In this document: one piece after another, positions 5,466 to 34,492 of the stretch
Position numbering within the stretch: position 1 is the first letter of the stretch
Layout of the letters: each line of letters opens with the position of its first letter
Source of the DNA: a virus
Reading direction: 5' to 3' (one strand)
Virus record (IMG/VR): IMGVR_UViG_3300019487_000065
Coordinates: 1 to 35,741 of that record
Length of the DNA stretch: 35,741 nucleotides
Notes under the pieces: generated by a model
Told to the model about the DNA's origin: nothing
The model's input: the letters and a program-made list of their open reading frames with translations, nothing else
Database searches by the model: none
Made by a program: the position numbers and the translations under genes

Positions 5466-5998
5466 GCTTTGACACCGACGACGATGAAGACGGACCGGTT
5501 CCGGGAACCGGCTACGACGGCACTGATCTCGAAGGCGCGAAGGCGTTCGTACAGACCAACCTGCGTGACGGCGTGACGTGTCCGTGCTGCGGACAGCTCT
5601 GCAAGATCTACAAGCGCAAGCTGAACAGCACGATGGCGCTCGCGCTCGTGCTGATCTACCAGTTCTTCAAGACGCACAAGCACGCCGACTGGCTACACGT
5701 CGCGGCGTTCTTGGTGAAGGTCAAGCACGACAGCTCGATCGCGGGCGGCGACGTCGTTAAGCTCCGCTACTGGGGGCTGCTCGAACGTGCGGCCGGTGAC
5801 CGTCCCGATGGCAGTGATCGCATCGGCCGCTACAAGATCACCGACCTCGGCAAGCGTTTTGTAGAGAAGGCTGCGGCTGTTCCCAAGTACGTGTATCTGT
5901 ACAACCAATTGTTGTTGCGTCTGAGCGAGGAAACGATCACGATCACGGATGCGTTGGGTGACCGCTTCTCTTACACAAAGCTGATGACGGGTGCGTAA
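5462..5998 (+). CDS. hypothetical zinc-knuckle plus probable winged-helix DNA-binding protein
   Basis: GTGA overlap upstream. It has an acidic N-terminus, CPCCGQLC, and then a helical segment ending RIGRYKITDLGKRFV. Confidence 0.6.
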   Translation: MSFDTDDDEDGPVPGTGYDGTDLEGAKAFVQTNLRDGVTCPCCGQLCKIYKRKLNSTMALALVLIYQFFKTHKHADWLHVAAFLVKVKHDSSIAGGDVVKLRYWGLLERAAGDRPDGSDRIGRYKITDLGKRFVEKAAAVPKYVYLYNQLLLRLSEETITITDALGDRFSYTKLMTGA

Positions 5999-6713
5999 AC
6001 GAAAACGAACAACTATCGGTGATACGTTCGGACGTTTGACGGTGATCGGGCGCGCACGACCTGCACCGAGTGGTCAGCCGCGTTGGCGTTGTCGTTGCTC
6101 TTGCAAGACGATCAAGGTCGTTCAGGGCAGCGCTCTGACAAGTGGACACACACAGTCGTGCGGCTGCTTGGGTACTGAACGTCGACGAGAAGCGTCTCGC
6201 ACGCACGGCATGAGCGGCACGCCCGAACATCGAGCTTGGAAGGGCATGTGGGCACGGTGCCTCGCGAAGCCGGGTAGCAAGTACTTTCGCCTGTACCCAA
6301 AGCAGGGCATCAAGGTGTGCGCACGTTGGAAAAAGTTCGAGAACTTCTTCGCTGATGTCGGACCACGTCTGTCGGCACAACATTCACTCGATCGCTGGCC
6401 CGATCCCCACGGTGACTACAAGCCTGGCAACGTGCGCTGGGCGACGATGAAGGAACAGAGTAACAACCGGCGCGACAACCGTATCGTCGAGTTGGACGGC
6501 GAGAAGTTCACACTCAGCGCCCTCGCCGACGCGGCAGGCTTCAAGGTGGGAACGTTACGCTCGCGGCTAGCCAAGATGGGCTGGGACGCACGCAAGGCCG
6601 TAGCAGCGCCCCTGAACGTTACGTCGATTCGATCGTTCACCGACGCGGAGCTGAAACGTCAGCGGACAGCGATCGAAACCGAGATTCAACGCCGACGACG
6701 AGGAAAACAGTAA
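5991..6713 (+). CDS. phage AP2/HNH-associated-type DNA-binding protein (homing-endonuclease-like, no nuclease motif seen)
   Basis: FGRLTVIG ... RCRCSC ... SCGC, then RAWKGMWARC, VCARWKKFENFFADVGPR and SLDRWPDPHGDYKPGNVRWATMKEQSNN. This pattern is common in phage proteins annotated as homing-endonuclease-like. I see no HNH or GIY-YIG catalytic motif. Confidence 0.6.
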   Translation: MRKRKRTTIGDTFGRLTVIGRARPAPSGQPRWRCRCSCKTIKVVQGSALTSGHTQSCGCLGTERRREASRTHGMSGTPEHRAWKGMWARCLAKPGSKYFRLYPKQGIKVCARWKKFENFFADVGPRLSAQHSLDRWPDPHGDYKPGNVRWATMKEQSNNRRDNRIVELDGEKFTLSALADAAGFKVGTLRSRLAKMGWDARKAVAAPLNVTSIRSFTDAELKRQRTAIETEIQRRRRGKQ

Positions 6714-9128: not shown

Positions 9129-9515
9129 CTACTGCGCGTAGTGGCGACGCCAGATCACAGCGCCCGTGGCTACTGCGCCGACGACAAGTACGGTCGACGC
9201 GACTGCCCAGAACTTGTAGTTCTTGTAGAAGGGCAGCTTGAGCGTCGGCGCCGATGTCACGTCGGGACCGTTGTCGATCGGGCGGACCTGATCGAACGCC
9301 GCCGAGATCGCCTTTTGGATACCGTTGCCGTTAGCACCGAGCGCGATGGCACGGAGTCCCACCTCGGAGCGTTCGCCGGCCGTCGGGAGCGAAGCGAACA
9401 ACGCGACCGCGCGTGGGTCGCCGATGGGCTCGAAGCCGATGTAGCCGAACACGAGCCGGGCCTTGGTCTCGATGTCGGCGGCCGAGAGGCCGAGGGCGTA
9501 TCCGTATTGAGGCAT
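9129..9515 (-). CDS. tail-anchored membrane protein (LPFYK..FW-TM-basic tail family)
   Basis: 128-aa ORF with strongly G/C-rich third positions, antisense to its neighbours. C-terminus LKLPFYKNYKFWAVASTVLVVGAVATGAVIWRRHYAQ parallels that of 12667-13224. Confidence 0.65.
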   Translation of the reverse strand: MPQYGYALGLSAADIETKARLVFGYIGFEPIGDPRAVALFASLPTAGERSEVGLRAIALGANGNGIQKAISAAFDQVRPIDNGPDVTSAPTLKLPFYKNYKFWAVASTVLVVGAVATGAVIWRRHYAQ

Positions 9516-9537: not shown

Positions 9538-9553
9538 GATCGCTCGCGCGATC
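9538..9553. promoter_or_regulatory. 16-bp palindromic motif GATCGCTCGCGCGATC, copy 1
   Basis: Exact 16-mer, identical to 13640-13655 and the reverse complement of 17163-17178. It lies in the divergent intergenic region, 22 nt upstream of the ATG of 9129-9515. Confidence 0.7.
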
Positions 9554-11108: not shown

Positions 11109-11374
11109 GTCACGACGACGAGGGAAAGCAGGCGAGCCTCGAACGCATCCGCGAGAGTGGTGTACTGCCGGGGCAGATCTACAAGCACCACGTGACCGGC
11201 GGCGTGTACGTCGTGACGGCCGTCGGCCTGAACGAGCCCGACCTCGAACCGCTCGTGCACTACCGCGCCGCTGAGGACCCGTACGCGATCGTCTGGACGC
11301 GGCAGCTGCACGTGTTCACCGGCAAGGCGCTCGTCGGTGACACACTCGTGCAGCGCTTCGTGCAGATCAGCTAG
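11105..11374 (+). CDS. DUF1653-like protein
   Basis: ATG 11105 forms an ATGA overlap. IYKHHVTGGVYVVTAVG ... PLVHYRAAEDPYAIVWTRQLHVF matches the DUF1653 pattern (YxHYKGxxY ... VVYR ... WVRP..F). Confidence 0.65.
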   Translation: MSHDDEGKQASLERIRESGVLPGQIYKHHVTGGVYVVTAVGLNEPDLEPLVHYRAAEDPYAIVWTRQLHVFTGKALVGDTLVQRFVQIS

Positions 11375-11880
11375 ACGTAGATCGTCGGGCCAGCCCAACG
11401 GCCCTGTGCGTCGTACACGTGCACCTGCACCCAGCTCGTCGCGACCTCGATCGTCTGGTGGCAGCGGTTACAGGTCACTGTACCGTGCGCGTTGGCGGTG
11501 CCGCACTTGTAGCAGTGCGCCGGATCGTCGGGCGGTGGTTGCGCGAGTGCCGTCTCGATAGGCTTGCCACGCAGCCCGCGCGCGAACTGCAGCGCAGCGG
11601 CCTCGGACGGGAACCCAATGGAACGATCCGGATCGGCGTGCTCGTTGCCGAGCAGGTCGCAGACGTGCTTGCCCGTCCACCGGTTGTAGATCGTCCAGAA
11701 CACCGGCACTGGCTTCGGTGGCGGTGTCCACGGACCTTGCATCGCAGCCATGTTGCGCTGCACCTTCGCGAGATCTTCGTCGGACAGCGCGGGACCTGCG
11801 ATGGCCTCGCCTGTTGGCTTGGGACCGGCCATCGATTCGTCGGTGGACCCGAAGATCGTGGCGCCCTGGATGATTCGCAT
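11371..11880 (-). CDS. hypothetical protein with C-terminal zinc ribbon
   Basis: 169-aa ORF with CYKCG ... CNRC. Its stop and the stop of the convergent DUF1653 gene share CTAG. Confidence 0.6.
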   Translation of the reverse strand: MRIIQGATIFGSTDESMAGPKPTGEAIAGPALSDEDLAKVQRNMAAMQGPWTPPPKPVPVFWTIYNRWTGKHVCDLLGNEHADPDRSIGFPSEAAALQFARGLRGKPIETALAQPPPDDPAHCYKCGTANAHGTVTCNRCHQTIEVATSWVQVHVYDAQGRWAGPTIYV

Positions 11881-11889
11881 CCTCGAAGT

Positions 11890-12666
11890 CTAGGCCGTGA
11901 TCGCGGCGATGTCGTTCTCGAACCGTGCGAGGTCGAAGCCATTGGGCGCCTTGCGCGTGTGCGTGATCCACAAATCGTCGATCACGAACCACGCCTCATC
12001 GATGTAGAGATCATCCCAGGCGTACGACATGCTCGTCTTGGCGACCCACGGCATCGTGCTCCACTTGCCGCGTTGGTGTCCGGTGATGATGAACGCGTGA
12101 CCACCTGCCGAGCCTGGGCGCTCATCGGGCGCACGTTGGCCGGGTGGGCTGACATCCCAGTTGAGCCCTTGACGATCGATCGACGCCGGCAAGCTCGCGC
12201 CGATGATCAACGAGCCACATGCATGGAGCGCTGCGCGCATCTCCAGCGTGTCGTTATGGTTCACGCGGCCGAAGCCCCGAATCTTGTACTGGCCGTTGCG
12301 GAACCCGACATTGCGGAGCTGCGTGAGCGCGTTGATGATCTGATCACCGCGATCGGATAGCGAACCGGGGACACCATCCCAGCCGGTGCCGTCTTTGTAG
12401 GCCTTCAAGACGTCGTCGGCGGTCAGCTCGCACTTGATGCCGAGCAGCGCGCAGCGCTGTTGGATGACGTGTCCGTAGCTCGTGCGCGTACAGCACCCAA
12501 CGCGATCGTTGCCGAGGAACGTGTAGTCGGACGTTGGACCTGTCCAGTCATCGATCGGCGGTGGTGCTTGGTAGCCGGGCCCCGTGTTTGCTGCGTAGCG
12601 CGCGAACCATGCGGTCCGCAGGTCGCGCCGCGATGGGGCCGAGCGACCAAACTTGCCGATCTGCAC
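11890..12666 (-). CDS. papain-like cysteine peptidase
   Basis: 258 aa with a GTG start abutting the upstream stop. LGNDRVGCCT (nucleophile region) and GSAGGHAFIITGH (His region) fit C1-like peptidases seen in phages. Confidence 0.65.
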   Translation of the reverse strand: MQIGKFGRSAPSRRDLRTAWFARYAANTGPGYQAPPPIDDWTGPTSDYTFLGNDRVGCCTRTSYGHVIQQRCALLGIKCELTADDVLKAYKDGTGWDGVPGSLSDRGDQIINALTQLRNVGFRNGQYKIRGFGRVNHNDTLEMRAALHACGSLIIGASLPASIDRQGLNWDVSPPGQRAPDERPGSAGGHAFIITGHQRGKWSTMPWVAKTSMSYAWDDLYIDEAWFVIDDLWITHTRKAPNGFDLARFENDIAAITA

Positions 12667-13224
12667 TTATCGTCTCCGTCGAAGGAGCGCGGCGCCCGCG
12701 CCGCCGATCAGCGCAGCGCCGCCGACGGCCGTCCAGAACTGCCACTTCTTGTAGAAAGGCAACGGCTCGACGGTGATCGTAGTCGTCGGCGGCACGGTCG
12801 TACCCGACGCGAGCGCGGTCATGAGTCGTTCGGCAGCGGCACGAATCCCTGGGACGGTTCCCATGTACGCGATCGCCGGGTTGCCCATCGGCAGCTCGTT
12901 GTACTTGTTGATGCGCGCGACGATCGCAGGATCTTGCGAGGGGATGTCGAACGTAGGGAACGCGCCGCCGGCCGCGTTCGCAGCCGCAGTCAGCTCGCGA
13001 ACCATGTCGCTGCCGAGGTAGATGATGTTCGTCCCGCTACCACTGCTGAGGCCGATCGCGCCCGCCGAACCCGACGACTGCACGACGACGAAGGCGTCGT
13101 TCGCAGGTTGAAACCAACCGGCCACGATGCCTTGCAGGTACTTCAGCGCTTCGCTGGGGCTGTTACGTAGCGTCTCGGCGTAGCTATCGTCGCCGAAGCT
13201 CGATGCGCGTGCGAGCGTGAGCAT
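12667..13224 (-). CDS. tail-anchored membrane protein (LPFYK..FW-TM-basic tail family)
   Basis: 185 aa. N-terminus MLTLARASSFGDD. C-terminus VEPLPFYKKWQFWTAVGGAALIGGAGAALLRRRR. The start overlaps the upstream stop by 1 nt. Confidence 0.65.
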   Translation of the reverse strand: MLTLARASSFGDDSYAETLRNSPSEALKYLQGIVAGWFQPANDAFVVVQSSGSAGAIGLSSGSGTNIIYLGSDMVRELTAAANAAGGAFPTFDIPSQDPAIVARINKYNELPMGNPAIAYMGTVPGIRAAAERLMTALASGTTVPPTTTITVEPLPFYKKWQFWTAVGGAALIGGAGAALLRRRR

Positions 13225-13622
13225 TAGATGTCTCCTGCCGAGGTCTTGAACGTTGCGTTGCCGGCTTCTTCACGACGGAAACGTTCGAGCGTGTTGTAGG
13301 CGTTCCAGCTGTCGGCCTGTGGCGGCGGTGCCGAGCGGTTGCCGAGGTAGCCCTGAACGACTTCGGCGAGCGCACAACCGCCGATCGCTTTGCCGGCGTT
13401 CTTGGCGCGCTGGTAGATCGCGGCCCAGTCTGGCATCTGGCCGTGGAGCAGCACTTGAAACTCGGCGACGAGCGACGTGATCTGGTCGCGGTTCTGTGCC
13501 GTGCAATCGACGACGGCATTGACGACGACAGGCACTGGGCCGGGACCCGGACAGCCAACCGGCACGATCATGCCGATGGCGAGGGCGAGGGCGATGAGCA
13601 TGTGCTGGACGGTGAGTTTCAT
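13224..13622 (-). CDS. small secreted or membrane-anchored protein (signal peptide; lipobox not canonical)
   Basis: ATG 13622 gives MKLTVQHMLIALALAIGMIVPVGCPGPGP. The upstream part of the 236-aa track ORF is Arg-rich. The 16-bp palindrome and a TACGCT hexamer lie just upstream. Confidence 0.6.
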   Translation of the reverse strand: MKLTVQHMLIALALAIGMIVPVGCPGPGPVPVVVNAVVDCTAQNRDQITSLVAEFQVLLHGQMPDWAAIYQRAKNAGKAIGGCALAEVVQGYLGNRSAPPPQADSWNAYNTLERFRREEAGNATFKTSAGDI

Positions 13623-13639
13623 GGCGTCCAGCGTATCAC

Positions 13640-13655
13640 GATCGCTCGCGCGATC
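13640..13655. promoter_or_regulatory. 16-bp palindromic motif GATCGCTCGCGCGATC, copy 2
   Basis: Exact repeat of 9538-9553, in the 35-nt gap between 13658-15346 and 13224-13622, 17 nt upstream of the ATG at 13622. Confidence 0.7.
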
Positions 13656-13657
13656 GC

Positions 13658-15346
13658 CTACGAAGCTGGCAGCGGGCTCAGAAGTGGATAGCCAGACTCG
13701 GTGCGGTGCACACCGATGGGCGCGTAGTTCAGGTGCGACTCCAATCCCAGCAGGCGCGCCAACGTGTAGACGATGCTGAGCCACATCTCGGTCCCGCGCA
13801 GCGTCGGTATCGAGCCGCGACTGAACGCGAAGCCCTGGTTGGGCGTCCAGCGAGGCAAGATTGCTTCGAGCTGCGTGCGCGCCCAGCGCTGCACGTCCTC
13901 GCGACGATGTGTGGTCTGCTGGAGACAGAGCCACAGCGGGTGCGCGACATCGAGCACGTTGCAGGCCGTCTCGCGGCCGTGCAGATCAGCGGCGTGCACG
14001 AGAATCGTGTCGAGCGCTTGCACTGGATACGGCACCGGCTTGTCGAACTGCGCGTACGTGCCGCGTGTGAGCCGATAGAAACCGTTCACCGGTTGCAGCC
14101 AGCGATCGGGCTGACGGTGGGCGCCCCACAGCCCTGTCGTGGAATTGCACCGCGTGTCGAGTGCGTGAAACAGCAATTCGAGCTGCGTACCCTGCGCGAA
14201 GTAGCGACGGTTGAAGTAGAGGCAGGACGCGTAGCAATCCACCCACGCGCCTGCGCCCCACGAATAACCGGTCCAATCTAGCGACCCGAGCGTCTTCAGC
14301 AACGTCGCGTCGTCGACTGCTTCGACAGCGTGCACCGGCCATCCGAGATTGGAGCCGAGACATTCGAGCGCGTACTGGACGATCATCGTGTTGTAGAACG
14401 GCTCGCCCGCTGTGGTCTCGCCGGGCTGACCCGCATCAGGCGCTTCGGGAAGGTATTCACCGACGAGGCCAGTGTGTGCGTCCTGCCACGAGCGTAGTCG
14501 CGTGACGAGTGCAGCCTTCGTGTGGTTCGGCGGCGTCGTGTGGAACATCGCTGCGATCTCGATCGCGTCGCACCACGGGCGTACGTACGTGATGCCGTTT
14601 GGCTGATCGACGAAACATGCGTGACCCGACGGCAACGTCGCGGTGCAGCGTGTGAGCACGGCGGGCATCTGTTGACGCGCACGTTCCCCGAAGTCGCGCA
14701 GTGACGCCGCAAGAGGATCGTGTGACGCGCTTGGCTGTACTGGCGACGCGTTGCGCATTCGAATCACCTTGGCCGGATTGCCGCCGACGATCGCGTAGTC
14801 GGGGACGTTCTTCGTGACCACAGCACCGGCTGCGACGATGGTGTGACTGCCGACGTGAATGCCGTCGAGGATGACCGTATTCGATCCAATCCATACATCG
14901 TCGCCCAACGTGATGCCGATCGAGTGCGTGGGCTGTTGGTAGACCGGAATGTCCACGCGCGCGTAGCCATGCTGAAAGCCGATCAAGGACGCGTGCGCGC
15001 CGATTCGAATACCGTGTCCGCCTCGAATTTTGCCGCGCACCGCTGCAAATGGATTGATCGTGCAGTGATCACCCAAAGTCACGTCGTCGGTCACGTACGC
15101 ATTGGCAGCGACGAAACAGCGTTCCCCGAGTTGCAATGATTTGCCGAGGCCGCCGACGATGGCAGCGCGCGGCGAGAGGTAGCAATCCTTGCCCACACGC
15201 ACACCCAGCTCGCGTGCGAGTAGGCGTTGGTGTTCGTGTTGCGCGTGCCGCTCGACAGTGGTGCTGTTCACCCAGTACAGCCACGGACAGAAATCTAGCT
15301 GCTGCTGTCGAAGCGCCGCTTTATCAACATCCGGGTCAGTGCTCAT
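13658..15346 (-). CDS. hexapeptide-repeat (LbH) acetyltransferase fused to a C-terminal alpha/alpha-toroid-like domain
   Basis: ATG 15346 (MSTDPDVDK) avoids a 100-nt overlap with the upstream gene. The LbH region runs from VGKDCYLSPRAAIVGG to IVGGNPAKVIRMR and includes FQHGY. The last ~330 aa have repeated aromatic/Gly motifs (TGLWGAH, NQGFAFS) like prenyltransferase/terpene-cyclase-type toroids. Confidence 0.75.
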   Translation of the reverse strand: MSTDPDVDKAALRQQQLDFCPWLYWVNSTTVERHAQHEHQRLLARELGVRVGKDCYLSPRAAIVGGLGKSLQLGERCFVAANAYVTDDVTLGDHCTINPFAAVRGKIRGGHGIRIGAHASLIGFQHGYARVDIPVYQQPTHSIGITLGDDVWIGSNTVILDGIHVGSHTIVAAGAVVTKNVPDYAIVGGNPAKVIRMRNASPVQPSASHDPLAASLRDFGERARQQMPAVLTRCTATLPSGHACFVDQPNGITYVRPWCDAIEIAAMFHTTPPNHTKAALVTRLRSWQDAHTGLVGEYLPEAPDAGQPGETTAGEPFYNTMIVQYALECLGSNLGWPVHAVEAVDDATLLKTLGSLDWTGYSWGAGAWVDCYASCLYFNRRYFAQGTQLELLFHALDTRCNSTTGLWGAHRQPDRWLQPVNGFYRLTRGTYAQFDKPVPYPVQALDTILVHAADLHGRETACNVLDVAHPLWLCLQQTTHRREDVQRWARTQLEAILPRWTPNQGFAFSRGSIPTLRGTEMWLSIVYTLARLLGLESHLNYAPIGVHRTESGYPLLSPLPAS

Positions 15347-15365
15347 ACTGGACCCGTGTTCGTTG

Positions 15366-16169
15366 TCATCGCGCTCTTCGTCGCCGCAGCGCTGCTTCTG
15401 CTTGGCGCCGTAAGGGGCCTGGGCCCGCCAGACCGGTCGCGTGACGATGATGAAAAAACAGCCCAAGCGCCGTCGTCGCCACCACAGCCGTGACGCCCGC
15501 CGCGATCAACGGGATCTTGTACTTCGAAATGGGCGACGGGGTCGGTGTGATCGTGATCGGTCCGATTTCGAGCCCGAGTTCGAGGGCTTTCAATGCGGAT
15601 GTAGCAACGTTGAGCAGCGTGACGTCGCGTTGCAGCTGCGGATCTGCGAACAGCTTGAGGGTCGTCATCGCTTCGGTACGAACGCTCGCCGGGATGTCAC
15701 GGTTCTTGAGCAGATTGTACAAGCTGACCGCGATGTATCCCTTGACAGTGTCGTTCGGCTCGATGCGACCCGCCGACGCTAACGCTTGTGCAGCAAGTGT
15801 CGGTGACACGGAATCGAACACAGGCTGCTCACCGAGTTTAAGCGCCGCGATCCGCCGAACGTTCACTTCGGTCGGCGAGACGCGCGCACCCATGCCGGTG
15901 TTACGCCAACCGGTGAGAATCGACTGCGCGATGCTGAACAAGAGCGCGTTGTCGACATCTTCAAGGAGCGTTTGCTTCTCGAAGGTCTTGATGCCCTTGG
16001 TGCCGCCGACCTGCTCGTCGCAAGTGACGACGGTGCTCGCGGCATTGTCGTCGTTACCGACGATGGGAAACGAACGGATGCATTGCTCGACGCGCTGCTT
16101 GAGTGCAGTTAGCTCGGACATCGGCGCACCGAGACCGCCGAGTGTGTTTGCGCCGGAGACGACCAGCAT
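15366..16169 (-). CDS. membrane-anchored protein (single C-terminal TM plus Arg-rich tail)
   Basis: 267 aa. N-terminus MLVVSGANTLGGLG. TM helix IPLIAAGVTAVVATTALGLFF followed by a basic tail ending RRRRAR. Confidence 0.65.
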   Translation of the reverse strand: MLVVSGANTLGGLGAPMSELTALKQRVEQCIRSFPIVGNDDNAASTVVTCDEQVGGTKGIKTFEKQTLLEDVDNALLFSIAQSILTGWRNTGMGARVSPTEVNVRRIAALKLGEQPVFDSVSPTLAAQALASAGRIEPNDTVKGYIAVSLYNLLKNRDIPASVRTEAMTTLKLFADPQLQRDVTLLNVATSALKALELGLEIGPITITPTPSPISKYKIPLIAAGVTAVVATTALGLFFHHRHATGLAGPGPLRRQAEAALRRRRAR

Positions 16170-17144
16170 CTAGTACTCCGAGTCGTCGTCGATGTCGTAG
16201 CCGCCGCTGTGTGGACGCTGGCGCGCGTGCGCACGCGGCACGGAGTGCCCGCCGCGATGCTTGCGGTAGATTACGTACCCGACGCCGCCCGCGACCGCGA
16301 GCACGCTGAGCACAGCAACCGTGCTGATCACGACAGGCGAGATCGGCTTGATCGGGGTTGGCCGACCTTCTTTGGCGGCCTTGAGAACGTCCTTCGCAGC
16401 GGCGATGCATTGCAGCCGCACGGTCTGATCGTCCGATGTACCGATGCACATGTCGCGCGTCGACACGAACAGGTCGCGGTCGCTCTGCACCTCTGCGACG
16501 CGCTGCTTGGCCTGCTCGGTGATCGCTTGATTTGCAGCGGCCGTATCGCTCGTCTGGAGAATCTTCGCGACGACGATCACTGCTGTTGCAATGACAGCAA
16601 GGCCGAGCAGGAAGAAGAGCGCGAGCGTCGGGAACGCGCCCAGTTGTCCGGCCGAGAGGTAACCCGCGAAGCCGCTGTTCTGGTAGCCCGAGAGCGACGT
16701 CGTGATCTCTTTGCCGACGATGCCGTACCGAATCTTGATCGTAGACGCTGGAACGCCGGCACCGAACCATGCGCCCAGCCCCGAAGGTGCCGGCAGATCG
16801 AACGTCGGGACCGCGATCGGCTGCGCATTCGGATCGGGCAGGTCGCTGGTGGGCGTCTGTGCGCGTGCCTGCAGCCAAATCTTGGTCGCTTCCATGAAGC
16901 TGCCGACCGCCGCGTTGTAGTTCCTCATCAGCGTGAGCAGCGGCGCCGGAATGTCCTGACCTGCCGTCTGGAGCGTAACGAGGTCGGGCAGCAACTGTGC
17001 GAACGTTGTGCGCAGCTGCGTCTCGGCTTGCGCGAGCGTGAGTCCCTGATTGGTGAGGCGCGGTACCTGCGCTTCTTCAGCGGGCGTAGCCGTAACCTGC
17101 CCGAGCTGCAGACGGCCGAACGAGGACGACGACGCGATGAGCAT
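16170..17144 (-). CDS. two-pass membrane protein
   Basis: 324 aa. N-terminus MLIASSSSFGRLQ. TM1 is FPTLALFFLLGLAVIATAVIVVA. A Cys-containing loop follows, then TM2 VVISTVAVLSVLAVAGGVGYVIY and a basic tail. First gene of the antisense island. Confidence 0.65.
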   Translation of the reverse strand: MLIASSSSFGRLQLGQVTATPAEEAQVPRLTNQGLTLAQAETQLRTTFAQLLPDLVTLQTAGQDIPAPLLTLMRNYNAAVGSFMEATKIWLQARAQTPTSDLPDPNAQPIAVPTFDLPAPSGLGAWFGAGVPASTIKIRYGIVGKEITTSLSGYQNSGFAGYLSAGQLGAFPTLALFFLLGLAVIATAVIVVAKILQTSDTAAANQAITEQAKQRVAEVQSDRDLFVSTRDMCIGTSDDQTVRLQCIAAAKDVLKAAKEGRPTPIKPISPVVISTVAVLSVLAVAGGVGYVIYRKHRGGHSVPRAHARQRPHSGGYDIDDDSEY

Positions 17145-17162
17145 GGGGCCTAGTAAACCATC

Positions 17163-17178
17163 GATCGCGCGAGCGATC
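17163..17178. promoter_or_regulatory. 16-bp palindromic motif, copy 3 (GATCGCGCGAGCGATC, reverse complement of copies 1 and 2)
   Basis: Located in the 59-nt divergent region between 16170-17144 (-) and 17204-17869 (+), 18 nt from the former ATG and 25 nt from the latter. Confidence 0.7.
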
Positions 17179-19463: not shown

Positions 19464-19872
19464 ACGGCGTATAAACCCTTGATCTCTCGTCCGAGCGCTC
19501 GAATGTAGGCGCGCCTACGTTCTGGAGTGCTACCAGCGTCCAGGTAGTTACTGACGCACTTGGTAGCTTACGCTACCAAACCAGTTGCTTTCTCCGGCCT
19601 AGTTCCAGGCTAGTGCGCATCAATTTTCTATCTAAATATATAAATAATCTATTCATACTCTCTTGGAACTAGGGGGAAGAATCCCTGATGGTATGTTCGG
19701 GAGATCTTTCGTGGTTCATTGGCTATACCAATTCGATTGACCGGAGATCGGCCCAGCTACACCGCTTAAACAACCTGGAACTTGGATCCGATCGACATCC
19801 AATCACGTACGATCTGACCGTGATCGTGCACGATCGTTGACGCATACACGCAAATCCGATACGACCTGGAGA
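19464..19872. promoter_or_regulatory. 409-nt non-coding hub with AT-rich core, palindromes and repeated TGGAACT elements
   Basis: This is the largest gap in the window. It contains a 14-bp palindrome (19505-19518) and an 8-bp-stem hairpin (19560-19579). Inverted 12-mers (19598-19609 and 19662-19673) flank the very AT-rich segment 19610-19661. A third copy of the element lies at 19774-19782 and a second 14-bp palindrome at 19822-19835. Confidence 0.7.
19837..19865 (+). promoter_or_regulatory. candidate promoter TTGACG-N17-TACGAC for the RHH-AP2 gene (near-leaderless)
   Basis: The -35 is at 19837-19842 and the -10 at 19860-19865, with ATG 7 nt after the -10. The palindrome GATCGTGCACGATC ends one nt upstream of the -35. 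Confidence 0.45.
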
Positions 19873-20523
19873 ATGTCGAAGCGGCCGTGGAAGGAGTCTA
19901 AGCTGGTAATTTCGTTACCGGATGACATCCTTGCGGAGTACGTCGACGAAGCGACGCAGCTATATACGTCGAAACAGGATCTTATACGTCAGATCTTGAT
20001 CGACCGTAAGCGCCGTCCGCAGCTGGACGTTGAAGCACCTACAGCACCACAGAGTGCCCGTTCAACGCGAAGCGGTTTCAAAGGCGTCTACGCGTACGGC
20101 AAGCGCTGGGAAGCTGTTGCGTACGTCAACCGCCGACGTACCCGCCTGGGGGTCTTCGACACGCCAGAGGGTGCTGCACGTGCCTATGACCTACACGTGA
20201 TCAGTAACGCAGGCGGTGACCCAAACGCGGCCGTCAACTTTCCCGGACCGGCCGACATCGCTGCGCAGACGAATGCGCCGTACATTGAGCAGTTCGCGAG
20301 CGGTGGACGACTCAGCGATCTCGATTGGCAGCGGTGGCAGCAACAGGCACCGGCCGCTGCCGCAGTCGATGCGCCGTTGAGTGTCCGTCCCGAGGGAGCC
20401 GGACCGCCGATCGATGCGACGACGCCACTGATCGATCGACCCGCGAAGTCACTCTACCGGCGGGAGCCGACACCGACACCGCGTCCGGATCCCGAGCCCG
20501 ACGACGACGAGAACCTGTCGTGA
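19873..20523 (+). CDS. ribbon-helix-helix plus AP2-domain DNA-binding protein
   Basis: ATG 19873. KLVISLPDDILAEYVDEATQLYTSKQDLIRQILID is CopG/Arc-like RHH. SGFKGVYAYGKRWEAVAYVNRRRTRLGVFDTPEGAARAYD ... AVNFP is an AP2/ERF-type domain. The tail is Pro-rich. Confidence 0.7.
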   Translation: MSKRPWKESKLVISLPDDILAEYVDEATQLYTSKQDLIRQILIDRKRRPQLDVEAPTAPQSARSTRSGFKGVYAYGKRWEAVAYVNRRRTRLGVFDTPEGAARAYDLHVISNAGGDPNAAVNFPGPADIAAQTNAPYIEQFASGGRLSDLDWQRWQQQAPAAAAVDAPLSVRPEGAGPPIDATTPLIDRPAKSLYRREPTPTPRPDPEPDDDENLS

Positions 20524-21446: not shown

Positions 21447-21956
21447 CTACGTCGACGCGTCGGGCGCGTTACCTTCGTCGGTCTTCTCGACGGCCGCGTT
21501 CCGTTTCGCGTCGTACGCATCGTGAACCGCTTGTGCCTCAGGCGTCTTCGGACCGAAGTCGGCTGCTGTCGCCATCGTCACGACCTTGTTCTTGTCGCGC
21601 TCCTTGCGCATCGCTTCCATGCTCGCGGCGAGCTGAGCGAAGTAGCGCAGCTCGGGCGGCAATTCGGCAACGTGCTGGTCGATGCCTGGGATCTTCTCGA
21701 TCGCATCAGCGATCTTCACGAGCGCTTCATGTGGCCAGCCTGCTACCGTCGCGGGATCCAGGTTGCCGACGGCGAACTGCACAATCTTGATCGTGTCGTG
21801 AACCGTCTCGTGGAGCAGCTTCGCGACTGCATCGTCACCGAGCTGCGCCGCCGCGAGCTTCTGCTCCAGCTCGTAGTTCTTGTTTTGCGTCGTGCGAAGA
21901 TCTTCGCGGAGCTTGTTGTAGTCGGAGTACTTGACGCTGACGGTGGGCTCGTCCAT
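21447..21956 (-). CDS. hypothetical protein
   Basis: ATG 21956 (MDEPTVSV) has TACGGT 6 nt upstream and no SD, the leaderless pattern seen elsewhere. The track start, GTG 21971, is the alternative. Confidence 0.6.
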   Translation of the reverse strand: MDEPTVSVKYSDYNKLREDLRTTQNKNYELEQKLAAAQLGDDAVAKLLHETVHDTIKIVQFAVGNLDPATVAGWPHEALVKIADAIEKIPGIDQHVAELPPELRYFAQLAASMEAMRKERDKNKVVTMATAADFGPKTPEAQAVHDAYDAKRNAAVEKTDEGNAPDAST

Positions 21957-21998: not shown

Positions 21999-22340
21999 CT
22001 ACGCCGCGCGAACTTCAAGAATCGACATCGAGACGCCGATGCTCTTGCCAGCGATGATGAGCTGCTGCACGCCGTCGTTGCTCTCGAATTTTGCCGTGAG
22101 TTGGGCGCGGCCAATGCCACCAGGCACGACGACGGCTGTGAGCTTGCCGGTCAATGCTGCCCACGCTTCGGGTGTCGATGCCTTCTCGAACACGTGCTTG
22201 AACCCGACCAGCTTGAGCGTGTCGCAGTCGGCCATCAACTCCTCGCGCGTGCGTGCAGTAAGCACGTTACCAGCTTCGGAACAGAAGCAATCGTAGGTGA
22301 GCAGCTTTGGATTTCGCTTCAGTGTCAACGCGGCGGGCAT
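21999..22340 (-). CDS. hypothetical protein
   Basis: 113-aa ORF with G/C-rich third positions. No domain recognised. Confidence 0.55.
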   Translation of the reverse strand: MPAALTLKRNPKLLTYDCFCSEAGNVLTARTREELMADCDTLKLVGFKHVFEKASTPEAWAALTGKLTAVVVPGGIGRAQLTAKFESNDGVQQLIIAGKSIGVSMSILEVRAA

Positions 22341-22378
22341 GCGAGCAGTCTACCATCAGATCGCGCACGCGATCGTCA

Positions 22379-23780: not shown

Positions 23781-23785
23781 ATGAG

Positions 23786-23859
<74 letters not shown>

Positions 23860-25165: not shown

Positions 25166-25741
25166 CTACACCGCAACGATGTTCGTAGGCGCGATCGACC
25201 AGCCGAGCTTCTTGCCGGTCTGCAGAAAAATCTGCGCCGAGCGTGCAATCAGCGCCGAGACCGTGACGATGAATGGCAGGTGCTCGCCGTCCTCGCACGT
25301 GGGCACACCCGCGGTTTCGTCATCGACGACGAAGTTCTCGTCCCAGATCACTCGACCGAACGCGCCATCAGCTGCCAACGCGCCGTGGAGCGTCGCCGGC
25401 TTGTGCTCGTTCTCGCGCGCGAACCGCTGAACCACGTGACGCGCTTCGCCGTTGTCAAGGCAGTCGATGATGAGGTCGCTGTCACGCATGAGCACGAACG
25501 CGTTGTTCAACTCCAGCTTCGCGTTGCGCACGTCGATCTTCGTCCCCCACAGGAACTGCATCGTCGCCTTGAGCGCTTCGACCTTGAGCTTGCCGCCGCC
25601 CGGCTTGCCGTGGAACTGCGACAGCATGTTCTTCGCCTCAACACGATCAAAGTCGATCACGCGCAACTCACCTGCGTTGCGCAGCAACATGGCGACGTGC
25701 GAGCCCAGTGCACCGACTCCGACGATGGTGATCTTCTTCAT
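25166..25741 (-). CDS. ThiF/MoeB/HesA-family E1-like adenylyltransferase (short form)
   Basis: ATG 25741 has GAGGAA just upstream. KKITIVGVGALGSHVAMLLRNAG (GxGxxG), VIDFDRVEAKNMLSQ and LIIDCLDNGEARHVV ... KPATLHGALAADGAFGRV follow the ThiF-family consensus. Confidence 0.75.
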   Translation of the reverse strand: MKKITIVGVGALGSHVAMLLRNAGELRVIDFDRVEAKNMLSQFHGKPGGGKLKVEALKATMQFLWGTKIDVRNAKLELNNAFVLMRDSDLIIDCLDNGEARHVVQRFARENEHKPATLHGALAADGAFGRVIWDENFVVDDETAGVPTCEDGEHLPFIVTVSALIARSAQIFLQTGKKLGWSIAPTNIVAV

Positions 25742-25775
25742 AGCTTCCTCGGGACGTTCTACAGGTTGCATTCAT

Positions 25776-29599: not shown

Positions 29600-30180
29600 G
29601 TGAGTTTCCTGTCCGCGAACTTCTGCAGCAGAATCCCGTGCGCGTCGCGATTCCAGCGCGCGTCCGCGATCGCCTCGTGATGGCTTACGTCAGGCAAGAG
29701 GTCACGGAAGCGCCCGGTGAAGCCAATGAACTTCGACCAGATCTTGAGGTCGTGGACAAGCCACGGGAAGTGCTTTGGCAGGTCGATCATCTTGCCGAAC
29801 AGCTGGCAGAACAGCACCCAGTCGTAGCTCGCGTAGTACGCCCAGACCTCGATCTGCTCCTTGGGCTCGACAGTGATGAACTGCTCGATCGCGCGTGCGA
29901 TCTCGGGTCGACGCCGCCACTTGCAGTCTACGTTGTGGACATAGTCAAGTGCGCCGCGTCGCCACGTCGGATGCTCGGGGCACGTGCAAGCCGGAAGGTG
30001 CTTGAACACGTTCTCACGCAGCCAATCGTCGGCGCCGGTCGTGTCAGGCCGGCCATCGTCGCCAAGCCAATTGCTGTCGATGAAGTACAGCTCGCGGCCG
30101 TCTTCGCACACGAGCGCGATCGAGATCAGCTTGAGCTGTGTCCCGTCATCGAGAAATTCGGTGTCCAGGTAGTAGCGCAC
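29596..30180 (-). CDS. DEDDh 3'-5' exonuclease (DnaQ-like fold)
   Basis: GTG 30180 with AGGAG 6 nt upstream. The motifs are YLDTEF (Exo I), YYASYDW (Exo II) and HHEAIADARW (Exo III, Hx4D). Confidence 0.75.
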   Translation of the reverse strand: MRYYLDTEFLDDGTQLKLISIALVCEDGRELYFIDSNWLGDDGRPDTTGADDWLRENVFKHLPACTCPEHPTWRRGALDYVHNVDCKWRRRPEIARAIEQFITVEPKEQIEVWAYYASYDWVLFCQLFGKMIDLPKHFPWLVHDLKIWSKFIGFTGRFRDLLPDVSHHEAIADARWNRDAHGILLQKFADRKLT

Positions 30181-32148: not shown

Positions 32149-34086
32149 TCACGCACACGCCCAAACGGGCTTCTTCAGCAGATCGGTCTTCAGGATTTGA
32201 TCAACGAGCGTCAGGCGCGGTGCCGCAACCGCTCGCACGGTGACCGGCGTCGCAGCGATCAGGGCTCGAATCGTGCGCGGGATTGCATACGTGTCCTCGA
32301 ACGTCTGCTCGTTGATCATGAAGCACGGAATACCGAGACGCTTCGCCGTCTCACGAACCGCGATGTTGTTCTCGCCGTTCTGCTGCTGATGACGGTACGC
32401 CGCTGCGCCGTTGTGCGGGACCGTCTTCACGAAGCCGAACGCCATCGGACGCAGACCCGATGCCGCGACCTGCTGATCGAACGCGTGCGCTTCCTCGTCA
32501 CCGACGAAGATGAACAGCGCGTCCTCGTCGGCCTGGGGCGGGTACTTCATCAGTTCACGCACGCCGGCACCGTAGTCGGTACCGCCACTCGCCGTGATGC
32601 CCTGGAACGCGTTCGTGACGCCGGCTGCCGATGCGTGCTTGAGCTTGACCTCACGACCCACCGTGTTGAACACGGCAATGTGCGTGCGATCGGCCGGGAA
32701 GCCCTGCAGGAACTTCGCGACGTACGTCTTCGCTGCCTCGATCGATGACTGCATCGAGCCCGAGATGTCGACGAAGAAGTAGACGCGGATGTTCTTCGCG
32801 ACTTCCTCGACGGCCTTCTTGATTGCCGTGTCAGCTGCCTCGGCGAGCTTGTCCTTCACTTCCTTGGACTGGACGTTCTTCGCGACGTTGAGCGTGCGCG
32901 AGTCCTCAGCCTTGGCGAGCGCCCTCTCCCAACGTGCCTTGATGTCGGGCACGTCGAGCAGACCCAGCTCTTCCAACGTTGGCGTTGCGATCACAAGATC
33001 ACGGTCCGAGAGCGCCTTCGCCTCGATCGCAGCTGCGACCACCGCACGCGTCAGTTGGCCCTTCGGCAGCCGACCCGTGATGGCCTTCCAGTCCGGCTTC
33101 TCGGCGACAATCCGCTCGCAGATCTGCGCCTCGGTCAGCTCGTTCCATGACTCAGCCTGCACGATGTTGATGTCCACCATCGTGCGATGACCGTCCTTGG
33201 ACTGGAGCTGCTTCCAGCGAAGCTCCTCGAAGAACTTGGGCGTGTTCGGCTTGTAGTGCACGCGGCGCGCGAGCTGGATCACCGTCTTGCGGAAACCCGC
33301 CTTGACGAGACCAGTCAGCAGCGGCGGGTTCTCCTCGCGATGACGTAGCCACTTCTCCGCGACCTCAGGCCAACGGCCAAGGAACGGGTGACGCGGCGAC
33401 ACGCCCAGGCCCATCTCGCGGTTGATCGCCGCGATCTCGGGCAGCATGAGCACCTCACGGATGCGCAGCAGGTTCTTGGCGTTCAGATCCTTGTCCTTCT
33501 TACGGATCAGCATCATCGCCTCGCCAATGTCGCGGAAGTCGTCGTCGTAGAACGCGACCTTGTCACCGTCGAGCACGGCGTCACCGCGACGCGTCTGCAC
33601 GAGCATGAACGCGGCGAGCACGACCTTGAGGTCGCGGTGGTCCTGGTTGAACGCATACGACGCCCAGCGCGCGGCGAATTCGTTGTCGAGCTTCCACACC
33701 TCGACGATTTGCTTGTACATCCACGCCGCGACCTCGGGGAAGATGCCCGCGTCGCGGTACTCGCCGATGATCGGATGGTTCGGGCTCGCGTCGGTGCGGA
33801 CGTGCTTGAGCACACCGTTCGGACCGACAGCCTCGGTGATCACACCGAGCTTCGTCTTGAGCGTCTTCTTGCCGCTCTTCGACAGCTTGTAGATGACCGT
33901 GCGCTTGGTGCCGTTGATCTCTTCGACTTTCGGCGTCACGGGTTCCCAACGCACGCCGACGTTGGTGCGCTTGTCCTCGATCACGATGCCGGGACGGCCG
34001 TGATAGAGGTGATCGGTGTAGGTAAGGACCGACGCGATGATGCGCTCGGCCGGACCCAGGTTCTCGCGATTGTTGACGTTGACCAT
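32149..34086 (-). CDS. vWA-domain protein with N-terminal TROVE-like helical module (Ro60/Rsr-like architecture)
   Basis: ATG 34086 with AAGGAG 7 nt upstream. The vWA MIDAS elements are FFVDISGSM, SGGTDYG and IFVGDEE. Upstream, GRWPEVAEKWLRH ... FRKTVIQLARRVHYKP parallels the Ro60 TROVE signature (WGRxLRxAIxxWY ... LLRLSHxKP) from memory. Confidence 0.65.
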   Translation of the reverse strand: MVNVNNRENLGPAERIIASVLTYTDHLYHGRPGIVIEDKRTNVGVRWEPVTPKVEEINGTKRTVIYKLSKSGKKTLKTKLGVITEAVGPNGVLKHVRTDASPNHPIIGEYRDAGIFPEVAAWMYKQIVEVWKLDNEFAARWASYAFNQDHRDLKVVLAAFMLVQTRRGDAVLDGDKVAFYDDDFRDIGEAMMLIRKKDKDLNAKNLLRIREVLMLPEIAAINREMGLGVSPRHPFLGRWPEVAEKWLRHREENPPLLTGLVKAGFRKTVIQLARRVHYKPNTPKFFEELRWKQLQSKDGHRTMVDINIVQAESWNELTEAQICERIVAEKPDWKAITGRLPKGQLTRAVVAAAIEAKALSDRDLVIATPTLEELGLLDVPDIKARWERALAKAEDSRTLNVAKNVQSKEVKDKLAEAADTAIKKAVEEVAKNIRVYFFVDISGSMQSSIEAAKTYVAKFLQGFPADRTHIAVFNTVGREVKLKHASAAGVTNAFQGITASGGTDYGAGVRELMKYPPQADEDALFIFVGDEEAHAFDQQVAASGLRPMAFGFVKTVPHNGAAAYRHQQQNGENNIAVRETAKRLGIPCFMINEQTFEDTYAIPRTIRALIAATPVTVRAVAAPRLTLVDQILKTDLLKKPVWACA

Positions 34087-34181
34087 GACGCTGCTCCTTG
34101 CCACCAGGCGCACGTATCCGTCGCGCCATCTTTCGATTCGCGCTACGTGGCACAACTCCACGTAGAACGAGGCAGCTGCGA

Positions 34182-34215: not shown

Positions 34216-34492
34216 ACTTGCTCGCAACGCGATCTCCGACGATGTTATCGTAGGCCGTGGGGACGTCGAAGCGCGCGACACGCCGAAAGCGCCGACAACA
34301 GCGCGCCGCACAACGACATGGCCGTGCTGCAAAGCCGACCCATCGACTACGATCTGGACGCACTGGTAGCGCCCACGCAAAGAAACCGCGATCGCGTCAG
34401 CGATCTGCGCACGTAAGCATCGCGGCACAGACCATCGAGCAATCCGTGCGCTGCGCCGAGTGTGGCGCGCGCCCCGGAGAGCTACATCGCCA

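Follow-up and report, generated by a model that had tools for sequence, protein, structure and literature searches.

A Mosaic Envelope-Directed Gene Island in a Phage Genome with a Conserved Lipoprotein and Peptidase Pair That May Belong to the Lysis Machinery

Introduction

What use does a phage have for seven tightly packed minus-strand genes that encode mostly membrane-directed proteins, a papain-like peptidase, and an acyltransferase? The question is raised by the DNA analyzed here, a stretch of 35,741 nt that comprises positions 1–35,741 of the IMG/VR virus record IMGVR_UViG_3300019487_000065 (the window). The window is phage DNA; its plus strand encodes part of a primase, HNH endonucleases, and numerous proteins from PHROG families without an assigned function. 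The seven genes, denoted g1 to g7 and referred to collectively as the island, occupy positions 11371–17144. An earlier note, prepared from the sequence alone, had described the island as a self-contained envelope-directed module, intended for superinfection exclusion, cell-surface modification, or membrane remodeling rather than replication, that could not be matched to a described system.

In this report, we compare the island with related loci (L001–L016) drawn from IMG/VR, GenBank, and metagenome assemblies. We find the island to be a mosaic, envelope-directed block, and we estimate a probability of roughly 0.55 that its conserved core, the predicted lipoprotein g4 and the papain-like peptidase g6, belongs to the phage lysis machinery. 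Lysis is a better reading than exclusion or surface modification because the g4/g6 pair sits beside endolysins and holin-like transmembrane (TM) proteins in distant phages, with some likelihood left to the other two readings for g1, g2, and g5. The island may be classed as a lysis-type envelope module with undescribed components, clade-specific membrane proteins, and a captured host gene. The part of the earlier description that assigned the block to the envelope and not to replication is supported.

Results

Organization of the Island

The seven open reading frames (ORFs) fill positions 11371–17144, and the GC content at their third codon positions (0.72–0.81) is of the coding type. The genes, in the order of transcription, are as follows.

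16170–17144, minus strand: g1, 324 aa, predicted inner-membrane protein with two hydrophobic segments and a Cys pair in the loop
15366–16169, minus strand: g2, 267 aa, single C-terminal TM segment and an Arg/His-rich tail
13658–15346, minus strand: g3, 562 aa, Hexapep LbH acyltransferase with a C-terminal domain of ~350 aa
13224–13622, minus strand: g4, 132 aa, predicted lipoprotein precursor
12667–13224, minus strand: g5, 185 aa, C-terminal TM segment and RRRR end
11890–12666, minus strand: g6, 258 aa, papain-like (C1-like) cysteine peptidase
11371–11880, minus strand: g7, 169 aa, C-terminal CxxC...CxxC zinc-ribbon-like motif

Neighboring genes abut, overlap by one base, or are separated by no more than 35 nt. 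The stop codon of g1 and the start codon of g2 form the sequence TAGATG, and the g2–g3 and g3–g4 gaps are 19 and 35 nt, respectively. The g4/g5 and g5/g6 junctions read TAATG and TAAGTG, and the 9-nt gap between g6 and g7 contains GAGG. At the distal end, the stop codon of g7 overlaps that of a convergent plus-strand DUF1653 gene within CTAG at 11371–11374. No terminator-like site was found at this overlap, and across the region neither terminator-like sites nor consensus sigma-70 promoters were found above chance. The ORF calls, the coding-type base composition, and the junctions therefore agree with the seven closely packed genes described earlier, and the stop/stop overlap without a terminator was likewise confirmed in the sequence.

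A megablast search of the island against GenBank phages returned no near DNA relative. The seven proteins were compared with Pfam, PHROGs, NCBIfam, and PADLOC, and nothing was found beyond a Hexapep match for g3 and PHROG 19005 for g6; the PADLOC defense and exclusion models gave 0 matches at E values up to 0.01. With only these two library hits, the earlier statement that no described system matches the whole block is upheld. Its product descriptions also hold for g1, g2, g5, the LbH domain of g3, and g6; the description of g4 has to be changed to that of a lipoprotein, and the zinc ribbon of g7 is weak.

Conservation and Gene Neighborhoods of g4 and g6

The genes g4 and g6 adjoin or are one gene apart in all 12 of the independent loci that contain g6 (L001–L005, L007–L010, L013, L015, and L016; L006 duplicates L005), with g6 identities of 29–84%. 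The g4 protein is conserved at 40–83% identity across phages with unrelated tail genes. Outside the clade of the window, the pair, or g4 alone, adjoins peptidoglycan hydrolase genes or lies within 2 kb of them in 8 of 9 loci. The exception is L016, where the contig ends just upstream of g4. The cassettes frequently form the end of the tail operon. The gene orders that were read in these distant loci are summarized below.

L001 (MW202816): tail-fiber genes, 51-aa TM protein, 161-aa four-TM protein, g4, Amidase_2 endolysin, g6
L003: GH25+PG_binding_1 endolysin directly upstream of g4-g6
L005: tail fibers, one-TM protein, three-TM protein of 202 aa, Cys-rich Zn-ribbon protein of 86 aa, g4, g6, 268-aa protein
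L007: coiled-coil anchor protein, g4, g6, 42-aa lipoprotein, Amidase_2-like protein
L009: signal-arrest-release (SAR)-like Phage_lysozyme (N-terminal signal-anchor) and M23 peptidase, both no more than 2 kb away
L012: holin-like 118-aa protein, Amidase_2+PGB, then g4; without g6
L013: tail fiber, 76-aa TM protein, g4, g6
L014: M23 peptidase two genes away

MW202816 is a complete myovirus genome of 48.5 kb in which the g4/g6 cassette ends the structural operon. There, the Amidase_2 protein is the only annotated muralytic enzyme, and the g4 homologue is the only annotated coding sequence with a lipobox. In L005, the 268-aa protein that follows g6 is homologous to an Amidase_2 endolysin (E 1e-43). 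Homology that places these genes in lysis modules had been named in the earlier note as the finding that would speak against an exclusion or remodeling function, and it is the finding obtained here for g4 and g6.

The Predicted Lipoprotein g4

The g4 precursor consists of MKLTVQHMLIALALAIGMIVPVG followed by C-PGPGP, with a mature part of ~108 aa that forms a helical domain. In an alignment of 29 homologues, C24, C40, and C83 are invariant; C24 is the lipobox Cys that follows the hydrophobic segment, the residue before it is nearly always Gly, Ala, or Ser, and a PGPGP-type linker comes after it. It is on account of these three features that g4 is read as a lipoprotein precursor. The earlier designation of a small signal-peptide protein was correct in recognizing a signal-type hydrophobic segment and is superseded by the invariant lipobox Cys. 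No other protein of the window is a credible lipoprotein. The g4 protein is probably transported out of the cytoplasm and held in the envelope by a lipid anchor, and the two further invariant Cys residues would fit a periplasmic disulfide.

The AlphaFold2 (AF2) model of g4 contains four helices, with an average predicted local distance difference test score (pLDDT) of 84 and values above 90 over residues 40–130. No match for this model was found among PDB folds (best E 0.5), and PHROGs contains no family for g4. The lack of a PDB fold match also leaves the identification of g4 as an inhibitor of the helical propeptide type or of the staphostatin type unsupported.

One irregular g4 gene was encountered. 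In the product of the gene called at 7106–7816 of L007, the g4 homologue follows an N-terminal part with two TM segments. Translation from an internal start (MTVVSLALVVALLGC) would yield a normal lipoprotein; either the start was miscalled, or the gene is a natural fusion of a holin-like part with g4.

The Papain-like Peptidase g6

The g6 protein matches PHROG 19005, annotated as of unknown function, with an E value of 1.3e-15. When a g6 profile was compared with the PDB, xylellain (3ois) was found at E 0.0056, and the GxCT and GGHA motifs of g6 align around the catalytic Cys and His. The AF2 model (pLDDT 91) gave the same enzyme as the top Foldseek match (E 3.6e-9, TM score 0.66), followed by procathepsins K, B, L, and S, and phage Peptidase_C1 proteins rank top in a search of BFVD. 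Among 26 homologues, C59, H190 (in GGHA), and N53 are invariant. N53 lies six residues before C59, at the position where papain has Gln. The papain fold, the Cys-His dyad, and an oxyanion-hole residue are thus all present in g6, and at the level of sequence models there was no Pfam hit at E values up to 0.1 and no NCBIfam hit. The protein is best called C1-like, clan CA. The cysteine peptidase assignment made earlier agrees with the fold and the invariant Cys and His residues, even though no Pfam model is reached.

An ordered N-terminal extension precedes the catalytic domain of g6, and there is no signal peptide. Assignment to the CHAP or NlpC/P60 families was considered and rejected; the fold matches go to C1 enzymes, and CHAP and NlpC entries appear at E >0.05. 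A twin-arginine translocation (Tat) signal at SRRDLRT or DRRTLWF was also rejected, as no hydrophobic region follows and the stretch is packed in the model (pLDDT 91–92). A profile-pattern scan of genome contigs for prophage or host copies of g6 found none.

Anchor Proteins g1, g2, and g5

Hydropathy scans indicate that g1 consists of a soluble N-terminal domain, a first TM segment at ~165–200, a second at ~264–294, and a tail that is first basic and then acidic. The basic tail after the second segment suggests a topology with both termini in the cytoplasm and a periplasmic loop. The Cys pair lies in this loop and is conserved in the g1 family, which comprises 39 representatives among 1.84 billion clustered proteins; the seven members that were read all have the same layout and the same N-terminal motif. 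For g2, the scan places a single C-terminal TM segment at ~219–240, followed by a tail of 27 residues rich in Arg and His, and no match was found in Pfam, PHROGs, or NCBIfam. In g5, a Pro/Thr linker and the motif LPFYKKWQFW are accompanied by a C-terminal TM segment rich in Gly and Ala, and the protein ends in RRRR. No g5 homologue was found in the related loci or in IMG/VR. A classification of g5 as an LPXTG or PEP-CTERM protein was discarded, since the LPXTG_anchor match is below threshold (13.6 bits against a cutoff of 15.9, E 0.08) and there is no PEP-CTERM hit.

The three proteins begin similarly: MLIASSSSFG in g1, MLVVSGANTLG in g2, and MLTLARASSFG in g5. This resemblance had been pointed out before and is real, as the motif M[LF]x[AVL]x3-6[FL]G opens all three proteins and their homologues. 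It also begins the seven distant g1-family proteins that were read and, in L008 and L015, the majority of the additional anchor proteins. The three proteins were nevertheless rejected as paralogues; BLAST and hhalign detected no global similarity, and only the N-terminal motif and the anchor are common to them. The orientation of g2 and g5 is not straightforward. Their Arg-rich tails argue that the N-terminal domains are periplasmic, yet neither protein has a signal peptide, and both have the N-terminal motif of g1, whose N-terminus is expected in the cytoplasm.

A related gene was found outside the coordinates given earlier for the island.

9129–9515, minus strand: outlying anchor-protein gene, 128 aa, with LPFYKNYKFW, a TM segment, and an RRHYAQ end

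It is the lone minus-strand gene within a plus-strand operon. The C-terminal anchor of its product matches that of g5 (E 2e-6), and the gene is, as judged from this match, an outlying member of the island gene set.

Palindrome and Predicted Promoters

The 16-bp palindrome GATCGC-N4-GCGATC occurs 14 times in the window at no more than one mismatch, compared with 0.66 expected. Seven of the sites are exact (9538–9553, 13640–13655, 17163–17178, 21699–21714, 22359–22374, 29887–29902, and 34390–34405), and the seven others have one mismatch. The central four bases flip orientation, for which reason the arms are taken to be what matters. A palindrome is located 17–22 nt upstream of four minus-strand starts, at 9515, 13622 (g4), 17144 (g1), and 22340, with a distance to the ATG of 17 nt at g4 and 18 nt at g1. 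At all four starts it is followed by an extended -10 element resembling TGnTAnnnT that ends 6–8 nt before the start codon. The four units are as follows.

17145–17178, minus strand: predicted promoter of g1-g2(-g3); palindrome GATCGCTCGCGCGATC (17163–17178), -10-like hexamer TTTACT in gatggTTTACT, 7 nt, ATG
13623–13655, minus strand: predicted promoter of g4-g5-g6-g7, in the 35-nt g3–g4 gap; palindrome 13640–13655, gTGaTAcgcT, 7 nt, ATG
9538–9553, minus strand: palindrome of the predicted promoter of the 9129–9515 gene, in the same arrangement with an extended -10 element
21999–22340, minus strand: gene for a soluble protein of 113 aa, preceded by the same arrangement with the palindrome at 22359–22374

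The arrangement is conserved in close relatives. The g1 promoter element is kept in L002 and L004 though the flanking sequences diverge, and syntenic copies precede g1 in L008 and L015. Before g4, the palindrome and the TGnTAnnnT element are both present in L002, L010, L008, and L015, and the palindrome was located there in L004. Overall, L002, L010, L008, and L015 show this arrangement ahead of g1, g4, and other anchor-protein genes, and L004 shows it ahead of g1. We infer a clade-specific promoter class in which a palindromic operator would occupy the -35 position and the mRNAs would be leaderless. By the same evidence the island would be composed of two transcription units, g1-g2-g3 and g4-g5-g6-g7. 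The palindromes before g1 and g4 bear out the earlier proposal that the island has regulatory sites of its own. They are not, however, private to it, given the 14 matches found throughout the window.

The Acyltransferase g3 and the Accessory Gene g7

The N-terminal part of g3 is an LbH acyltransferase domain (PF00132), detected with the Pfam Hexapep model at E 1.5e-17 and 62.9 bits against a cutoff of 27. Residues ~37–207 match LbH acetyltransferases in the PDB at 1e-14 to 1e-15. The C-terminal domain of ~350 aa has no Pfam or PDB sequence match, even when used as a profile. With neither a signal peptide nor a TM segment, g3 is predicted to be cytoplasmic.

Full-length homologues of g3, at 50–57% identity over 96–98% of the length, are abundant in bacterial chromosomes, and those with a named source are mostly from Verrucomicrobiota (Rariglobus, Opitutaceae, and Chthoniobacteraceae). 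The homologue in Rariglobus hedericola, annotated as an acyltransferase, adjoins an AraC-type regulator and not a surface-polysaccharide locus. No member of the family was found in 2.9 million IMG/VR viral contigs by protein and profile-pattern scans, and none in any related phage locus. It is from this distribution that g3 is taken to be foreign to the phage; it is best seen as a host-derived insertion (moron) in a variable slot, apparently from a single recent capture. Its relatives also provide a tentative hint that the host may be a verrucomicrobium. The acetyltransferase fusion noted previously does contain a true Hexapep domain, and it belongs to an ordinary bacterial chromosomal family rather than being a phage invention.

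For g7, the zinc-ribbon matches in Pfam are weak and below the cutoff (E 0.03–0.07). Its homologues were limited to one in L010 (44%) and one in L015 (42%), where it forms the C-terminal portion of a protein of 279 aa, and g7 appears to be a variable accessory gene.

Mosaic Structure of the Island

Genes of the g1/g2 type are confined to the clade of the window (L002, L004, L010, L008, and L015). They always neighbor g4-g6, and this linkage persists despite an inversion in L008 and L015. The g1 gene is syntenic in all five of these loci, and g2 homologues follow g1 in L002, L004, and L010 at 49–67% identity. The intervening slots differ. Between g2 and g4, L002 and L010 carry a different gene of 73 aa on the opposite strand, and in L015 the slot between g4 and g6 contains a 121-aa anchor protein that is not homologous to g5. 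Because the g4-g6 pair is widespread, g1 and g2 are found only in the clade, g3 and g5 are without homologues in these phages, and the slots differ, the island is read as a mosaic with variable cargo slots around the conserved core of g4 and g6. The description of the island as self-contained could not be maintained, as only g4 and g6 are widely conserved, g1 and g2 are clade-specific, and g3, g5, and g7 vary.

Discussion

Proposed Assignment of the Core to Lysis

The assignment of g4 and g6 to lysis is an argument from gene neighborhood, and several observations weigh against it. No muralytic enzyme is encoded in or beside the island, or at the corresponding position in the close relatives L002, L004, L010, and L015. 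The only candidate endolysin seen in the window is a PG_binding_1 protein encoded 17 kb from the island.

34493–35491, minus strand: candidate endolysin, 332 aa, with an N-terminal PG_binding_1 domain and a C-terminal domain of 260 aa

The binding domain of this protein is found by Pfam at E 8e-14, endolysin PHROGs match residues 1–74 only, and the PDB matches, among them phiKZ gp144, are likewise confined to the binding domain, with nothing matched by the C-terminal domain. The architecture is that of the phiKZ gp144 endolysin, and the protein is a candidate for an endolysin or a virion-associated wall hydrolase. It was rejected as a homologue of the L013 neighbor, there being no similarity beyond the binding domain.

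The individual components also depart from those of known lysis cassettes. As expected for an o-spanin, g4 has a lipoprotein signal with a lipobox Cys. It is not a canonical o-spanin: the mature part is folded and ~108 aa long, not a short, Pro-rich, unstructured segment of typically under ~60 aa, and only the PGPGP linker is Pro-rich. No adjoining i-spanin partner with an N-terminal TM segment and a coiled coil was found in the neighborhoods that were read, and the membrane neighbors in the island are anchored at their C-termini. With regard to a holin role, TM domains and charged C-termini are present in g1, g2, and g5, and no endolysin gene adjoins them. At 324 and 267 aa, g1 and g2 greatly exceed the usual size of holins (~60–220 aa), and no holin family was matched in Pfam, PHROGs, or NCBIfam. 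Lipoprotein genes next to tail-fiber genes can also be superinfection-exclusion genes. To our knowledge, C1-type peptidases are not established as lysis proteins, and text searches of a literature library found no paper on a C1 peptidase and a lipoprotein in phage lysis.

If the core does act in lysis, the following sequence of events can be envisioned. The g6 peptidase would accumulate in the cytoplasm, possibly inhibited by its own N-terminal extension as in xylellain, whose pro-region is self-inhibitory. When the membrane is permeabilized at the end of infection, g6 would reach the periplasm and cut an envelope link there, either the stem peptides of peptidoglycan or the protein tethers between wall and outer membrane. 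The g4 lipoprotein would serve as the envelope-side partner of g6, as an anchor or an activator, or it may be an independent lipoprotein that disrupts the outer membrane. The proteins g1, g2, g5, and the product of the 9129–9515 gene would be clade-specific additions in the inner membrane that time or assist this step in a holin/antiholin-like or regulatory role, and g3 and g7 would stand outside the core mechanism. The block would be transcribed as two leaderless mRNAs from the promoters composed of the palindrome and the extended -10 element.

A more specific version of this scheme can be proposed, although we regard it as quite tentative. The g4/g6 pair might constitute an unrecognized two-component system that replaces the spanins in the final step of the lysis of diderm hosts. 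The outer-membrane lipoprotein would dock the protease released by the holin, which would then cut the ties between the outer membrane and the wall, and in the clade of the window the motif-bearing anchor proteins expressed from the same promoters would set the timing. Spanin-less solutions to lysis do exist, the phiKT gp28 disruptin being an example.

Alternative Functions

The explanation that survives best among the alternatives is superinfection exclusion or surface modification, which we consider unlikely. In this case g4 and the anchor proteins g1, g2, and g5 would act like T5 Llp, Cor, or Sie-type proteins and deny competing phages their receptors or the entry of their DNA, and g3 would modify a surface polysaccharide. 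A block with a lipoprotein and several inner-membrane proteins without enzymatic domains has the right appearance for exclusion, as does its distance from any endolysin gene in the clade of the window, and g4 comes shortly after tail-fiber genes in L013, L005, and L001, where genes of the Llp/Cor type are also found. However, exclusion lipoproteins track their receptors, and g4 keeps its 40–83% identity across unrelated tails. The g4 gene is constantly accompanied by those for a protease and muralytic enzymes, also in L012 and L003, where no tail gene adjoins, and PADLOC found no exclusion system. For surface modification, there is the precedent of phage LbH acetyltransferases that modify capsules (CUS-3 NeuO). 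The surface-modification module suggested earlier loses its support in g3, which is absent from every relative, has no TM segment or export signal, and has a bacterial homologue beside an AraC regulator.

It is improbable that g4 and g6 form a protease-inhibitor or protease-chaperone pair unrelated to lysis, in which g6 would process the N-termini of g1, g2, and g5, or host proteins, and g4 would inhibit it. The tight coupling of a cysteine protease gene to a small upstream gene is a classic inhibitor architecture; the C10 protease genes of Bacteroides fragilis are reportedly paired with genes for lipoprotein inhibitors, and the staphopain/staphostatin pairs are said to be comparable. The M[LF]..FG motif found in three of the island proteins could be the cleavage site of such a processing enzyme. 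These resemblances are countered by the predicted locations, since g4 would be exported and g6 has no signal, so that the two would remain in separate compartments until the membrane is breached. Moreover, g4 is helical rather than a beta-barrel of the staphostatin or chagasin type and matches no inhibitor fold, it occurs without g6 beside an amidase in L012, and the g4-g6 pair is found in many phages that have no protein with the N-terminal motif.

There is little to recommend a heterogeneous cluster of morons that share no function and collected in a permissive slot between operons: the variability of g3, g5, and g7, the exchange of the g2–g4 slot for the opposite-strand 73-aa gene in L002 and L010, and the failure of hhalign to relate g1, g2, and g5 would all be accommodated, but g1-g2 and g4-g6 are conserved as pairs whose linkage outlasts rearrangements, the promoter class and the N-terminal motif are held in common, and the gene junctions are translationally coupled.

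Significance

With lysis retained as the favored function of the core, the recurring pair of a lipoprotein and a C1 protease in lysis cassettes is a concrete and testable candidate for a new lysis function, and the pair may also represent a new class of envelope-active enzyme. How spanin-less phages breach the outer membrane is only partly understood, and for the phages of Verrucomicrobiota and other uncultivated bacteria from freshwater and soil, knowledge of lysis is scant. The analysis also dissects the island into portable cargo, represented by the host acyltransferase, and a core. The signature of the promoter and the leaderless mRNA could offer a means of mapping the regulon in this phage clade.

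Other Features of the Window and of the Related Loci

Several genes elsewhere in the window are of separate interest.

5991–6713, plus strand: HNH endonuclease gene, PHROG 374, E 7e-56
19837–20523, plus strand: HNH endonuclease gene, PHROG 99, E 2e-8
23785–23859, minus strand: tRNA-Met (CAT), not connected to the island
25166–25771, minus strand: ThiF-family (E1-like) protein, Pfam E 4e-21, not connected to the island
32149–34161, minus strand: 670-aa protein with a C-terminal VWA domain, not connected to the island

The two HNH genes coincide with dips in GC content to 0.52–0.58 at ~6.5–8 kb and 19–20.5 kb, which would fit mobile homing-endonuclease insertions. In the related loci, large Cas12f1-like_TNB proteins (TnpB/Cas12f-like) are encoded a few kb from g4-g6 on the minus strand of L008 (10780–13125) and of L016 (3442–5337). 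At 9206–10030 of L008 there is a repeat-laden ORF in which SIKNRSSKCFC and LDQEPIEQVFL recur; it resembles the translation of a DNA repeat array.

Comparison with Known Systems

Each of the main components of the island can be set beside a known counterpart. As with T5 Llp and the Cor proteins of phi80 and N15, g4 is a small phage lipoprotein whose gene is sometimes found just after tail-fiber genes. It differs from them in having no detected similarity of sequence or fold, in being kept across different tails, and in its linkage to a protease and muralytic enzymes. The g3 protein has the same two-domain architecture as the LbH acyltransferases of Verrucomicrobiota, for example that of Rariglobus hedericola, and differs from these in being encoded by a phage.

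The counterparts of g6 are xylellain and the papain family (MEROPS C1), with which it has in common the papain fold and an N-terminal extension ahead of the catalytic domain. The identity to these enzymes is 15–17%, the residue six positions before the catalytic Cys is Asn instead of Gln, and the g6 gene, unlike theirs, belongs to a phage and always has a lipoprotein gene as its partner.

The closest known system for the island as a whole is the lysis cassette of phages that infect Gram-negative bacteria, composed of a holin, an endolysin, and either Rz/Rz1 or a u-spanin. The island departs from such cassettes in having no endolysin itself, in the size of g1 and g2, which are three to four times as large as a typical holin, and in g4, a folded helical protein of ~108 aa where a cassette would have a short Pro-rich o-spanin, with no type II i-spanin found. 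In common with these cassettes, the island is a cluster of small membrane proteins and an envelope lipoprotein, and g6, like the endolysins that depend on a holin, has no signal peptide. In the distant relatives, g4 and g6 are located between genes for holin-like TM proteins and Amidase_2 or GH25 endolysins at the end of the late operon, as in a lysis cassette.

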